Part shown: positions 4,177 to 9,442 of the stretch, piece by piece
Numbering within the stretch: position 1 is the first letter of the stretch
Layout: each line of letters begins with the position of its first letter
NCBI RefSeq assembly: GCF_003334765.1
Contig: NZ_QOWT01000013.1
From: Escherichia coli
GTDB taxonomy: Bacteria; Pseudomonadota; Gammaproteobacteria; Enterobacterales; Enterobacteriaceae
Reading direction: 5' to 3' (one strand)
DNA length: 64,000 nt
Program-made: the position numbers and the translations under genes
The notes under the pieces: generated by a model
The model's input: the letters and a program-made list of their open reading frames with translations, nothing else
Databases searched by the model: none
What the model was told of the DNA's origin: nothing

Positions 4177-5316
4177 ATGAAAAAGAACATTTTTAAGTTT
4201 TCGGTACTGACATTGGCTGTTCTGTCTTTGACAGCATGTACCCTTGTTCCTGGTCAGAATTTATCGACCAGTAACAAGGATGTCATTGAACTACCTGACA
4301 ATCAGTATGACCTGGACAAAATGGTCAATATCTATCCCGTCACGCCAGGATTGATTGATCAGTTGCGCGCCAAACCGATTATGTCGCAGGCTAACCCGGA
4401 GCTGGAGCAGCAAATCGCAAACTATGAATATCGTATCGGGATTGGTGATGTGTTGATGGTTACGGTCTGGGATCACCCGGAACTAACCACCCCCGCAGGG
4501 CAATACCGTAGCGCCAGTGATACCGGCAACTGGGTTAACGCCGATGGTGCGATTTTCTACCCCTATATTGGTCGCCTGAAAGTGGCCGGGAAAACACTTA
4601 CCCAGGTACGCAACGAGATTACAGCGCGTCTCGATTCAGTCATTGAAAGCCCGCAAGTCGATGTCAGCGTCGCGGCGTTCCGATCGCAAAAAGCGTACGT
4701 CACCGGCGAAGTCAGCAAATCGGGTCAGCAGCCGATTACCAATATTCCTCTGACCATCATGGATGCGATTAACGCCGCGGGCGGTCTGACCGCAGATGCA
4801 GACTGGCGCAACGTGGTGCTCACCCAGAATGGCGTAAAGACCAAAGTGAACCTCTATGCGCTGATGCAGCGTGGCGACTTGCGCCAGAACAAACTGCTGC
4901 ACCCGGGCGATATTTTATTTATTCCGCGCAACGATGATCTGAAAGTCTTCGTGATGGGTGAAGTGGGTAAACAGAGCACGCTGAAAATGGACCGCAGCGG
5001 TATGACCCTGGCGGAAGCGCTGGGTAACGCTGAGGGTATGAATCAGGATGTCGCTGATGCGACGGGGATTTTTGTTATTCGTGCAACGCAAAACAAGCAG
5101 AATGGCAAAATCGCCAATATTTATCAGCTGAATGCGAAGGACGCATCGGCAATGATACTCGGAACGGAATTCCAGCTTGAACCTTACGACATTGTTTATG
5201 TCACTACCGCGCCGCTGGCTCGTTGGAACCGTGTGATTTCTCTGCTGGTACCGACGATTTCCGGGGTGCATGACCTGACAGAGACTTCACGGTGGATTCA
5301 AACATGGCCCAACTAA
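4177..5316 (+). CDS. gfcE: GfcE (YccZ), Wza-family outer-membrane polysaccharide export lipoprotein
   Basis: ORF-track frame 4156..5316 trimmed to ATG 4177 (379 aa); lipoprotein signal (LTAC); Wza-like sequence. Confidence 0.85.
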
Positions 5317-5750
5317 AATTTAACTCAATCCTGGTGGTTTGTACCGGCAACATTTGCCGTTCGCCCATTGGCGAGCGCTTGCTGCGTAAACGTCTGCCGG
5401 GCGTAAAAGTCAAATCGGCAGGTGTTCATGGTCTGGTAAAACACCCTGCAGATGCGACAGCGGCAGATGTTGCCGCTAATCATGGCGTATCTCTTGAAGG
5501 ACATGCCGGACGTAAGCTCACTGCTGAGATGGCACGAAATTACGATCTGATTCTGGCAATGGAGTCGGAACATATTGCTCAGGTTACCGCAATTGCTCCC
5601 GAGGTCCGCGGGAAGACAATGCTGTTTGGGCAATGGCTGGAACAGAAAGAGATCCCGGATCCCTATCGTAAAAGTCAGGACGCATTTGAACATGTCTACG
5701 GTATGTTGGAGCGCGCCAGTCAGGAATGGGCGAAGCGCCTCAGCCGGTAA
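5304..5750 (+). CDS. etp: Etp (YccY) low-molecular-weight protein-tyrosine phosphatase
   Basis: ORF-track frame 5292..5750 trimmed to ATG 5304 (148 aa); CTGNICRS P-loop motif of LMW-PTPs; overlaps gfcE 3' end by 13 nt. Confidence 0.9.
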
Positions 5751-5769
5751 TTTGAGTTTATAAAATACG

Positions 5770-7950
5770 ATGACAACTAAAAATATGAATACGCCACCAG
5801 GCAGCACTCAGGAAAATGAGATCGATCTGCTTCGTCTGGTCGGCGAGTTATGGGATCACCGTAAGTTTATTATCAGCGTGACCGCGTTATTCACGCTGAT
5901 CGCTGTCGCTTACTCGCTGTTAAGCACACCAATTTATCAGGCAGATACTCTGGTCCAGGTTGAGCAAAAACAGGGCAACGCCATTCTCAGCGGCCTGAGC
6001 GATATGATCCCTAACTCATCGCCCGAGTCTGCACCGGAGATCCAACTGCTGCAATCGCGCATGATTCTCGGTAAAACCATTGCTGAACTGAATCTGCGCG
6101 ACATAGTTGAGCAGAAGTATTTTCCGATTGTGGGTCGCGGCTGGGCGAGATTAACCAAAGAAAAACCAGGTGAGCTGGCGATCAGCTGGATGCATATTCC
6201 ACAACTGAATGGTCAGGATCAGCAACTGACACTCACGGTTGGGGAAAACGGCCACTATACACTGGAAGGTGAAGAGTTCACCGTCAATGGTATGGTCGGC
6301 CAGCGTCTGGAAAAAGATGGCGTTGCGCTGACTATCGCGGACATTAAGGCCAAACCAGGAACACAGTTTGTCCTGAGCCAGCGTACCGAACTGGAAGCGA
6401 TTAACGCATTGCAGGAAACCTTTACCGTTAGCGAACGCAGTAAAGAAAGCGGGATGCTGGAACTTACCATGACTGGTGATGATCCCCAGTTGATTACTCG
6501 TATTCTGAACAGCATCGCTAACAACTATTTGCAACAGAATATCGCTCGCCAGGCGGCGCAGGATTCACAAAGCCTTGAATTCTTACAGCGCCAGTTACCT
6601 GAAGTGCGCAGCGAGCGGGACCAAGCGGAAGAAAAACTCAACGTTTATCGCCAGCAGCGCGATTCGGTTGACCTTAACCTGGAAGCCAAAGCCGTTCTTG
6701 AGCAGATTGTGAACGTTGATAATCAACTCAATGAGCTGACCTTCCGCGAGGCAGAGATCTCCCAGCTGTATAAGAAAGATCACCCAACTTATCGTGCGCT
6801 GCTGGAAAAACGCCAGACGCTGGAGCAAGAACGCAAACGCCTGAATAAGCGGGTATCGGCAATGCCTTCCACCCAACAGGAAGTGTTGCGTTTAAGTCGT
6901 GACGTAGAAGCGGGCCGTGCGGTATATCTGCAATTACTTAACCGCCAGCAGGAGTTGAGTATTTCGAAATCCAGTGCCATTGGTAACGTGCGGATTATCG
7001 ACCCGGCAGTCACTCAGCCGCAGCCAGTGAAACCGAAAAAAGCGTTGAACGTGGTGCTTGGTTTTATTCTTGGCCTGTTTATTTCTGTGGGTGCCGTGCT
7101 GGCGCGTGCGATGTTGCGTCGTGGTGTAGAAGCCCCGGAACAACTGGAAGAGCACGGCATCAGCGTTTATGCCACTATCCCAATGTCCGAGTGGCTGGAT
7201 AAACGCACCCGTCTGCGTAAGAAAAATTTATTTTCTAATCAGCAGCGCCATCGTACTAAAAATATCCCCTTCCTGGCGGTGGATAACCCGGCGGATTCTG
7301 CTGTGGAAGCCGTACGTGCGCTACGAACCAGTCTGCATTTCGCTATGATGGAGACGGAGAATAACATTCTAATGATCACCGGTGCGACGCCAGACAGTGG
7401 TAAAACGTTTGTCAGTTCAACTCTGGCAGCGGTGATCGCCCAGTCCGATCAAAAAGTGTTATTTATTGATGCCGACTTACGCCGTGGTTATTCGCATAAC
7501 CTGTTTACCGTGAGTAATGAACATGGCTTGTCGGAATATCTGGCAGGTAAAGATGAGCTCAACAAAGTGATCCAGCATTTTGGCAAAGGAGGCTTTGATG
7601 TGATTACTCGCGGTCAGGTGCCACCTAACCCGTCTGAACTGCTGATGCGCGATCGGATGCGTCAATTACTGGAATGGGCGAACGACCATTACGATCTGGT
7701 GATTGTCGATACGCCGCCGATGCTGGCGGTGAGTGATGCCGCGGTCGTGGGGCGTTCTGTTGGCACCAGCCTGCTGGTTGCGCGTTTTGGCTTGAACACC
7801 GCCAAAGAGGTGAGTTTGTCAATGCAGCGTCTGGAACAGGCAGGCGTCAATATTAAAGGCGCTATCCTCAATGGTGTGATTAAACGCGCCAGCACCGCTT
7901 ACAGTTACGGCTATAACTATTACGGTTATAGTTACTCCGAGAAAGAGTAA
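5770..7950 (+). CDS. etk: Etk (YccC) Wzc-family BY-kinase (tyrosine autokinase)
   Basis: ORF track 5770..7950, 726 aa; Walker A (GATPDSGKT), C-terminal tyrosine cluster YSYGYNYYGYSY. Confidence 0.9.
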   Translation: MTTKNMNTPPGSTQENEIDLLRLVGELWDHRKFIISVTALFTLIAVAYSLLSTPIYQADTLVQVEQKQGNAILSGLSDMIPNSSPESAPEIQLLQSRMILGKTIAELNLRDIVEQKYFPIVGRGWARLTKEKPGELAISWMHIPQLNGQDQQLTLTVGENGHYTLEGEEFTVNGMVGQRLEKDGVALTIADIKAKPGTQFVLSQRTELEAINALQETFTVSERSKESGMLELTMTGDDPQLITRILNSIANNYLQQNIARQAAQDSQSLEFLQRQLPEVRSERDQAEEKLNVYRQQRDSVDLNLEAKAVLEQIVNVDNQLNELTFREAEISQLYKKDHPTYRALLEKRQTLEQERKRLNKRVSAMPSTQQEVLRLSRDVEAGRAVYLQLLNRQQELSISKSSAIGNVRIIDPAVTQPQPVKPKKALNVVLGFILGLFISVGAVLARAMLRRGVEAPEQLEEHGISVYATIPMSEWLDKRTRLRKKNLFSNQQRHRTKNIPFLAVDNPADSAVEAVRALRTSLHFAMMETENNILMITGATPDSGKTFVSSTLAAVIAQSDQKVLFIDADLRRGYSHNLFTVSNEHGLSEYLAGKDELNKVIQHFGKGGFDVITRGQVPPNPSELLMRDRMRQLLEWANDHYDLVIVDTPPMLAVSDAAVVGRSVGTSLLVARFGLNTAKEVSLSMQRLEQAGVNIKGAILNGVIKRASTAYSYGYNYYGYSYSEKE

Positions 7951-7960
7951 AACTGAAAGT

Positions 7961-7996
7961 GGCCGGATGCGGCGTGAACGCCTTTTCCGGTCTACG
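7961..7996. repeat. REP (repetitive extragenic palindromic) element
   Basis: GGCCGGATGCGGCGTGAACGCCTTTTCCGGTCTACG between convergent etk and appA; matches the E. coli REP consensus. Confidence 0.7.
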
Positions 7997-8028
7997 CATT
8001 AGACAGTTCTTCGTTTGTCATCAGCCTC

Positions 8029-8059
8029 AGAGCATTCAGGTAACTGAATGCTCTTTTTT
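8029..8059 (+). terminator. Rho-independent terminator downstream of etk
   Basis: AGAGCATTCAG-GTAA-CTGAATGCTCT perfect hairpin followed by TTTTTT. Confidence 0.65.
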
Positions 8060-8064
8060 ATGCA

Positions 8065-9363
8065 TTACAAACTGCACGCCGGTATGCGTGCTTCATTCAC
8101 GATTTGCGTAAAACCTGCCAACGAACACATGCCCTGCGCATTTCGCTCTTCACATCCTGCCAGGGTCAGTTTCACCTCTCCGGGCGGCGTATTTAATGAC
8201 AGCGGCGTTTTATCACGCATCTGCTGTAAAGTCTGGAAGACCAGCGAAACCTGAATCCACTGGCTGTTATCGCTTAGCCGACGCCAGCGTTCAAACACCA
8301 GTTCACCACCTGGCGGCGTGTTATCCGGCTGACCGGGAAGCGTCCAGTTGAGCTCCAGTGCGCCGCCGAGATTTGCCAGATTAGTATCGTGTCCGGCGAT
8401 AAACAGCACTGAAGTGGGTAATGTCACACCATACGCCTGTTTTTGCGGTGGATGGGGCGTCAACGCTGTCTTGATCAAATCTAATAACGGGGTGGCGCGG
8501 CTGCGGGCAACCTCTGGCGTGCGTTGTAGCAAATAAAATTGCGCGTTATGCAAACTTAGCAAGGTGTTCCACTGGTGTGAATCGGTGATCCTTCCCCACC
8601 CCGGCTCCGGCATTCCCTGTGCTTGTTGCAGGAGAAATATCTCCGTCAGCATTGATGCGAGGCTTACCGCACCGGTTAATGAGACATTGTCGGCGCTCAC
8701 CTTGAGTTCCGATGGTAATGCCTGCGTTAATGAACAGCTTTCGTCCTGTTTCTCACGTTTAAGGCACAAGTTTGATTGCGGAAAATTAAGCACCCGTTCC
8801 AGTTCGCGAAACGCCGTTTGCCGATGCCCGGTAAAGTCAGCAATTGACCCTCCTGCCCTGCTGAGGATCGCGTCAGTCACGTTCGCGTTATCCAGTTGGC
8901 AAACGCCAGTTTTTAGAGGATTAAATAACGGATCGGGACTGGACGTATCTGCCTGGGTATGTACGGTTATTGCACAGTCAGGTGCCAGCCCGGCGGCGAA
9001 GGCTTCGCCTGTTTTACGGGTACGCTCGTCGACATCAGCAATAATCGCGACCTGACCAGACTGCGGGCAGCCCTTTTTCGCCAGCAATCCGTCGGCTACC
9101 AGACGCTGGCGTTGGTAATGTCCGAGATAGGCGATTAGCTCACCACCGCGCGGTGTCAGCCAACCCAGTTTTACCGGCCAGGTTGGCCATGCGTCTGGGG
9201 TGACATCCTGCATCAGTTGCGTGGCCTTGGTTGGAGCACGCACACCATGACGACTGACAATCACCACACTTTCCAGCTTCAGCTCCGGCTCACTCTGAGC
9301 GAATGCAGATTGCGGGGTTAACGGAATCAGAAGAGATAAAAATGGGATTAAGATCGCTTTCAT
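8065..9363 (-). CDS. appA: AppA periplasmic phytase / pH 2.5 acid phosphatase
   Basis: ORF-track frame 8065..9393 trimmed to Met-11 (432 aa); signal peptide, RHGVRAP histidine-acid-phosphatase motif. Confidence 0.9.
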   Translation of the reverse strand: MKAILIPFLSLLIPLTPQSAFAQSEPELKLESVVIVSRHGVRAPTKATQLMQDVTPDAWPTWPVKLGWLTPRGGELIAYLGHYQRQRLVADGLLAKKGCPQSGQVAIIADVDERTRKTGEAFAAGLAPDCAITVHTQADTSSPDPLFNPLKTGVCQLDNANVTDAILSRAGGSIADFTGHRQTAFRELERVLNFPQSNLCLKREKQDESCSLTQALPSELKVSADNVSLTGAVSLASMLTEIFLLQQAQGMPEPGWGRITDSHQWNTLLSLHNAQFYLLQRTPEVARSRATPLLDLIKTALTPHPPQKQAYGVTLPTSVLFIAGHDTNLANLGGALELNWTLPGQPDNTPPGGELVFERWRRLSDNSQWIQVSLVFQTLQQMRDKTPLSLNTPPGEVKLTLAGCEERNAQGMCSLAGFTQIVNEARIPACSL

Positions 9364-9442
9364 CGATATGTTTCCGCTTTTCATATCTGACATTATTGAT
9401 TGCCTGATGCGATGCTAATGCGCCGCATCAGGCCTACGTTCG

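Follow-up and report, generated by a model that had tools for sequence, protein, structure and literature searches.

The y, z1 and z2 REP elements of Escherichia coli are defined by a conserved GTAG tetranucleotide located 5' of a palindrome (PMC8266576), and two inverse REPs joined by a linker form a BIME. A further, biochemical hallmark of the y-type REPs is binding and cleavage by the TnpA-REP (RAYT) transposase. REPs are one class of the structures that protect Rho-dependent transcripts. Such transcripts have precise steady-state 3' ends located just past stable stem-loops without a U tract, these ends are made by PNPase and RNase II trimming, and the sequence downstream is enriched in C over G (Dar and Sorek 2018, PMC6061677). 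In the same study, 13% of the mapped intrinsic terminators were associated with annotated REPs. According to the summary of Liang, Rudd and Deutscher 2015 given in PMC12306157, a REP reduces translation when fewer than 16 nt separate it from a stop codon.

The etk/appA junction of E. coli can be compared with each of these systems. Its spacer carries a hairpin that, like canonical Rho-independent terminators, is a stable stem-loop followed at once by a U tract that closes on an in vivo 3' end; unlike them, it has G-C pairs at only 5 of its 11 stem positions and lacks an upstream A tract. As with the bidirectional terminators (Ju, Li and Liu 2019), a single hairpin lies between two convergent stop codons, whereas the symmetric A- and U-tracts of that class are missing and a published 3' end is listed on one strand only. 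The spacer also contains a REP that resembles the E. coli y-type REPs and BIMEs in its GTAG head, its imperfect palindrome of ~35 nt, its internal mismatch loop and its near-identical copies genome-wide. In contrast to a BIME, this REP is single and is accompanied by a putative 10-nt relic of a second, inverted REP; the junction of MOD1-EC7003 has a complete pair of a y and a z2-like REP at the same site. As at the REP and stem-loop 3' stabilizers of Rho-terminated mRNAs (Newbury 1987; Peters 2012; Dar and Sorek 2018), two stable stem-loops lie in the appA direction: a hairpin without a U tract, then the REP with an interrupted U-rich stretch, ahead of a region antisense to etk that is mildly C-rich over G. 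Finally, the stem of the REP starts at a distance of 8-11 nt from the stop codon of etk, inside the 15-nt range of the REPs reported to lower translation (Liang 2015; for example nrdAB).

The window, a 64,000-nucleotide stretch of the E. coli contig NZ_QOWT01000013.1 (assembly GCF_003334765.1), contains the junction at 7951-8064, where the stop codons of etk and appA face each other across 114 bp, just as the first-pass annotation had described it (Table 1). The etk gene encodes a tyrosine kinase and is the closing gene of the gfc-etp-etk group 4 capsule operon. RefSeq gives both names, etk and appA, to the genes at this junction across thousands of genomes. From the appA stop codon, the distance to the T-run is 5 nt and that to the hairpin stem 10 nt. 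The window does not come from K-12 itself, since a 4.3-kb MG1655 segment is not an exact substring of it, but its 114-bp spacer is identical to that of MG1655. K-12 coordinates were obtained as 1049980 minus the window coordinate, a conversion fixed by K-12 derivatives with a 100% match over 7931-8084. The junction is an ordinary 3' meeting point of two convergent operons with two known kinds of element. We assign a probability of about 0.8 to the following account of the whole: a one-way hairpin terminator ends etk, a y-type REP lies upstream of it, and appA transcripts read through the hairpin and then end either by Rho termination with trimming or at the REP as an intrinsic end.

Table 1. 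Features at the etk/appA junction (window coordinates; strand left empty where none applies)
Feature	Position	Strand	Basis
etk CDS	5770-7950	+	NCBIfam NF007350, 1592 bits vs cutoff 1248; stop TAA 7948-7950
Interrupted U-rich tract (UUUCAGUUUUACUCUUUC), candidate weak appA tail	7941-7958	-	tail score -3.95
Single y-type REP, GTAG 7995-7992	7959-7996	-	consensus match, fold, copy number
GCATTAGACA (CGCATTAGAC, 7995-8004; first C common with the REP), putative REP relic	7996-8005		alignment to MOD1-EC7003
Terminator hairpin	8029-8054	+	perfect 11-bp stem, GTAA loop
Terminator T-run, TTTTT	8055-8059	+	published RNA 3' end at 8059
appA open frame	8065-9393	-	NCBIfam NF007552, 846 bits vs cutoff 585
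appA CDS, K-12 annotated start	8065-9363	-	open frame extends to 9393
Right boundary of gfc-etp-etk presence/absence polymorphism	8073-8074		homology lost in block-less genomes

The two arms of the hairpin (8029-8039 and 8044-8054) show 100% complementarity around a 4-nt loop, and the fold has a free energy of -17.2 kcal/mol (z = -7.2), with 0 of 200 shuffled sequences as stable. The perfect hairpin with a T-run that had been noted at 8029-8059, separate from the REP, is thus present as described. In the etk direction the stem is directly followed by UUUUUAU, which is the stem-loop and U-tract arrangement of an intrinsic terminator. We computed Kingsford-type tail scores and ranked them among all 15-mers of the window. 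The T-run scores -4.92 on the etk strand, within the top 0.11%, and the sequence that comes next in the appA direction, GAGGCUGAUGAC, scores -1.58, close to the window median. On the plus strand the hairpin is preceded by CAGCCTC, without an A tract, so its flanks lack the A-tract/U-tract arrangement of bidirectional terminators; a pattern scan of the spacer reported a plus-strand terminator and no minus-strand terminator. Because there is no A tract upstream on the plus strand and no U tract in GAGGCUGAUGAC, the hairpin with its T-run reads as a one-way terminator, and the 5/11 G-C pairs of a stem without an upstream A tract likewise point to termination in one direction only. The first-pass annotation had placed a T-run on the etk side only. 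For the hairpin this holds; for the REP it does not, since on the appA strand UUUCAGUUUUACUCUUUC comes directly after it.

A published RNA 3' end falls at the end of this T-run. The curated Term-seq list of Adams et al. 2021 (eLife; PMC7815308, supplementary file 1) contains a 3' end at MG1655 1041921(-), which corresponds to window position 8059(+), the final T of the run. Its flanking sequence is given as CTTCG...GCTCTTTTTT up to the end and ATGCATTACA beyond it, and its average reads are 51,879 in LB at OD 2.0 and 111,719 in M63; the end is not in the LB OD 0.4 list (PMC7815308). In the same tables its abundance is mid-range and ~10x that of the thrL attenuator end. As the MG1655 spacer is identical and the Term-seq end lies on the last T, the hairpin is a working intrinsic terminator of the etk strand, and the etk half of the Term-seq check that had been proposed for this junction comes out in favor of the hairpin. 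Under the 50-nt rule of Adams et al. the end is labeled 'antisense appA', because its distance from the etk stop codon exceeds that limit (PMC7815308). The distance is 109 nt, part of which is made up by the REP; it is this displacement beyond the 50-nt rule that leaves the end without a 'primary' label. No entry under the name etk is present in the Adams tables.

The y-type REP consensus, in the form used here, matches the plus strand at 7962-7995 with 2 mismatches in 34 nt, and 0 of 100 shuffles of the window yielded a chance match to it. A canonical REP had previously been placed at 7961-7996, which is right to within 1-2 nt of the y-type element found here, whose extended stem starts at 7959 and whose core spans 7962-7995. 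CTAC at 7992-7995 on the plus strand is GTAG on the minus strand, directly 5' of the palindrome, and the published defining features of the E. coli y, z1 and z2 REPs fit the spacer element (PMC8266576). This element is an imperfect palindrome whose fold consists of 5 + 4 pairs flanking a 3x3 internal loop (AAA/GCA, minus strand), with energies of -20.2 kcal/mol on the plus strand (etk sense) and -16.3 kcal/mol on the minus strand (appA sense). The REP 38-mer occurs in at least 40 places per genome in 5426/5426 complete E. coli genomes, and the spacer REP therefore belongs to a repeated family. An Rfam search of the REP found no family above its gathering score; naRNA4, a REP-derived family, was sub-threshold at 25.6 bits against a gathering score of 59.5. 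REP features are missing from the MG1655 feature table that we used, including for the yaaX-yaaA gap, at which the deposited MG1655 record presumably annotates one. The spacer copy is located outside coding sequence, between the two stop codons, and is transcribed within the etk 3' UTR and, given read-through of the hairpin, within the appA 3' UTR as well.

A search for a second REP found no y or z2 consensus match within 3 mismatches in the window, so that one intact REP is present rather than the two inverse REPs and linker of a BIME. In a single comparison, CGCATTAGAC (7995-8004) aligns to CGCATCAGGC, the outer arm of the second REP of MOD1-EC7003, which tentatively suggests that CGCATTAGAC is probably the relic outer arm of a second, inverted z2-like REP from a former pair. 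Separately, the stretch from the cbdX/appX stop codon (9445-9443) to the appA start (9363) contains a REP-like element at 9402-9437 (-). This element consists of GTAG and GCCTGATGCG...CGCATCAGGC with perfect 10-bp arms, and begins 6 nt past the cbdX/appX stop, which also places it within 15 nt of a stop codon.

The etk stop codon ends at 7950, the extended REP stem begins at 7959 and the core at 7962, so that the stem follows the stop within 15 nt, the spacing of the class described by Liang 2015. By this secondary argument from position, the REP next to etk may be one of those that reportedly hinder ribosomes at termination, with stalling, trans-translation and a reduced yield of protein. In a spacer variant with a 5-bp insertion the distance from the etk stop to the REP stem is 13-16 nt.

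The spacer is present in 3743/5426 E. coli genomes, with an identity of at least 99% over 154 nt in 2827 and of 90-99% in ~900. A 44-mer containing the hairpin is specific to this locus and is found in exactly the 3743 of 5426 genomes that carry the spacer; its median of two places per genome probably results from the palindrome matching both strands. We aligned seven spacers from distinct sources, six from E. coli (including MG1655, O157:H7 and O55:H7) and one from Escherichia sp. MOD1-EC7003. Variable positions number 0 of 22 in the stem and 16 of 92 in the rest of the spacer (one-sided Fisher p = 0.024); the stem being invariant, the alignment yields no covariation evidence for or against the structure. 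Among these seven, the hairpin loop occurs as GTAA, GTAG or GCAA, and the T-run has a length of 6 or 7. More change is seen in the REP region than in the hairpin stem, with G/A and T/C differences at the REP edges. In O157:H7, O55:H7 and related strains, AAGGT (5 bp) is inserted at 7955/7956, between the etk stop and the REP, and the loop reads GTAG instead of GTAA (window 8043).

Larger rearrangements occur in individual strains. In strain 20A24 an IS1 is inserted in the 5' arm of the REP (window ~7964-7972) with a 9-bp target duplication, GGATGCGGC; the REP is split and etk is moved ~770 bp away from the terminator (L015 360-380 and 1135-1150). In strain LC-1302-2020 an IS3-family element, with a rearrangement next to it, replaces etk and the REP to ~8003 (L004 1747-3000), and the linker, hairpin and appA are intact. 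The MOD1-EC7003 spacer (L012 4140-4310) is 164 bp long and contains two inverted REPs, y and z2-like, in a BIME-like arrangement, with the hairpin stem unchanged. In this genome the appA stop codon TAA is TCA and a full-length appA reading frame is absent, and appA is probably a pseudogene there.

The gfc-etp-etk block, the REP and the hairpin are all absent from 1683/5426 genomes, for example LF82. The block is also absent from E. whittamii and two other Escherichia genome records, in a shallow comparison in which a contig scan with an appA 3'-end pattern matched four Escherichia records only. Where the block is missing, cspH and appA are convergent, with an overlap of ~13 bp between their reading frames. 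The homology break at 8073/8074 falls within the last three codons of appA, and the AppA C-terminus reads ...PACSL in genomes with the block and ...PAC(A/S)LHQDK in those without it. Boundary positions in the block-less loci are L002 2980-2992 and L010 ~6440-6460, with further boundaries in L009 and L011. At the left boundary the last codons of cspH differ (CTCTCTTAA vs TTGTCTTGA), both encoding Leu-Ser-stop. These breakpoints assign the hairpin to the etk block rather than to appA in its ancestral form. That it travels with etk, and is absent where cspH abuts appA, fits a role as the etk terminator. It also fits appA generally lacking a canonical intrinsic terminator, and no terminator-like site was found downstream of appA in LF82.

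RNA polymerase arriving from etk transcribes the REP, a 32-nt linker, and the hairpin with its U tract, with release at ~8059, as documented by the Term-seq end. Release there occurs 5 nt short of the appA stop codon on the opposite strand, so that etk transcription does not run antisense into appA. The REP in the etk 3' UTR forms a stable stem-loop in RNA of either strand. An appA transcript would meet the hairpin as a stem-loop of -16.7 kcal/mol without a U tract, and read-through of it is most likely. Two routes may then end the transcript. In the first, Rho would terminate transcription within RNA antisense to etk, a stretch that is untranslated and richer in C than in G, and 3'-5' exonucleases would trim the RNA as far as the REP or else as far as the hairpin. 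In the second, transcription would end by weak intrinsic termination at the REP followed by the interrupted U-rich tract on the appA strand.

Our first choice for appA would be Rho termination with trimming back to the REP, ranked above an intrinsic end at the REP, because the transcript has two stable stem-loops followed by untranslated antisense etk sequence that is C-rich over G. The plus-strand GC skew is +0.17 to +0.21 at 7650-7850, which makes appA read-through RNA C-rich, a mild bias. The suggestion that appA transcripts may rely on the REP or on Rho is plausible. The proposal that an appA 3' end mapping to the hairpin would demonstrate bidirectionality is unsound, since a Rho-terminated RNA trimmed to a U-less stem-loop has the same end (PMC6061677). 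No appA-sense 3' ends (K-12 10419xx or 10420xx, +) are listed in the Adams tables, which list dominant peaks only and in which appA may be poorly expressed. These lists were curated to one dominant peak per 100 bp per strand (PMC7815308). Expression of appA is mainly induced in stationary phase, anaerobiosis or phosphate limitation. With dominant-peak curation and with appA possibly expressed poorly in the conditions sampled, the lack of an appA entry is uninformative. Supplementary file 2 of Adams 2021 names no Rho termination region for appA or etk, which for the etk strand is indirect evidence of termination independent of Rho; the supplements of TERMITe 2025, SMRT-Cappable-seq and RepRanger have no appA, etk or coordinate matches, and a full-text literature search returned no mention of an appA terminator or of the hairpin sequence.

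The REP and the U-rich tract downstream of it could instead be appA's own intrinsic terminator, which would place two interdigitated one-way terminators in the spacer; we regard this as possible, though unlikely. Each transcript would then pass through the other gene's hairpin and end at the one beyond it, and each mRNA would carry ~100 nt of fully complementary 3' UTR. UUUCAGUUUUACUCUUUC directly follows the -16.3 kcal/mol appA-sense stem-loop, its tail score ranks among the highest 1.2% of 15-mers in the window, the O157-type variant retains the tail (-3.8), and REP-associated intrinsic terminators are a mapped class (the 13% of Dar and Sorek, PMC6061677). These features suggest that the REP could act as a weak intrinsic terminator for appA. 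However, CAG breaks the U tract, the REP stem contains the 3x3 internal loop, and the score depends on weak outer GUG/CAC pairs, falling to -2.0 when counted from the CCGG core. The tails are weaker in E400634 (-2.5) and MOD1-EC7003 (-1.5), and the Adams tables lack a K-12 plus-strand 3' end at 10420xx. In addition, UUUCAGUUUUACUCUUUC is the complement of the A-rich last codons of etk, its stop codon and 8 nt of 3' UTR (GAGAAAGAGTAA plus AACTGAAAGT), and the composition of a tract that is partly etk coding sequence may not reflect termination.

The RNA that ends at 8059 in K-12 might differ from the full-length operon mRNA and be short and stable, arising as a decay product of the 3' UTR with the REP and the terminator as its limits or as a small RNA with its own transcription, a reading to which we give little weight. 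Its mid-range abundance, ~10-fold above the thrL attenuator end, its dependence on condition (LB OD 2.0 and M63, not LB OD 0.4) and the 6-U tail of the terminator are in line with such a species. K-12 also has an IS1 (insAB-4) upstream of the gfc operon, which we take to affect the operon's promoter, so that a stable fragment of small size, and not the complete etk mRNA, could be what is seen in K-12. Against a small RNA, no sigma-70-like promoter was found at 5000-8100 on either strand, no Rfam family was above threshold, and the literature text searched mentions no appA/etk intergenic RNA; a short RNA would in any case not conflict with the function of the terminator. A more elaborate scheme, in which crossed one-way terminators and ~100-nt complementary 3' UTRs couple the phytase and the capsule kinase through an RNA duplex and RNase III and the REP throttles Etk translation, is improbable.

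We consider it quite improbable that the hairpin at 8029-8054 is bidirectional and ends appA as well as etk transcripts. It is very stable both ways (-16.7 kcal/mol in the appA sense) and lies 10 nt past the appA stop, and such terminators are reportedly common between convergent E. coli genes, going by the title under which Ju et al. 2019 is cited. Yet the appA direction has GAGGCUGAUGAC in place of a U tract, with a score (-1.58) near the median, no A tract precedes the hairpin on the plus strand, a terminator is reported by the scan on that strand only, and appA in etk-less genomes has no such hairpin. Less probable still is an appA end at the small hairpin in its own last codons (8091-8074, -; GCACGC-loop-GCGUGC, then AGUUUGUAAU), which was flagged by the pattern scan and folds at -11 kcal/mol, but has a z of only -1.4 with 17/200 shuffles folding as well, an ordinary tail score of -2.39 (23% of 15-mers), a regional scan total of 3 hits vs 3.0 expected from shuffles, a position inside translated sequence and no listed 3' end at K-12 10419xx (+). 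As a terminator, this GC-rich 6-bp hairpin was rejected as no better than shuffled sequence. Genomes share its sequence whether or not they carry the etk block (LF82, PS10-3), but it has substitutions in the E. whittamii, L009 and L011 records.

Both spacer elements are standard and well understood, and the RNA 3' end was present in a public table beforehand. With a one-way terminator next to a REP where two genes converge, the locus makes a clean textbook example, of little import beyond annotation. At that level, the 'antisense appA' 3' end of the Adams tables is really the terminator of the gfc-etp-etk operon. The junction is also suited to testing whether the output of Etk is reduced by a REP so close to its stop codon (within 15 nt), and whether a REP sets the 3' end of a Rho-terminated mRNA, that of appA.
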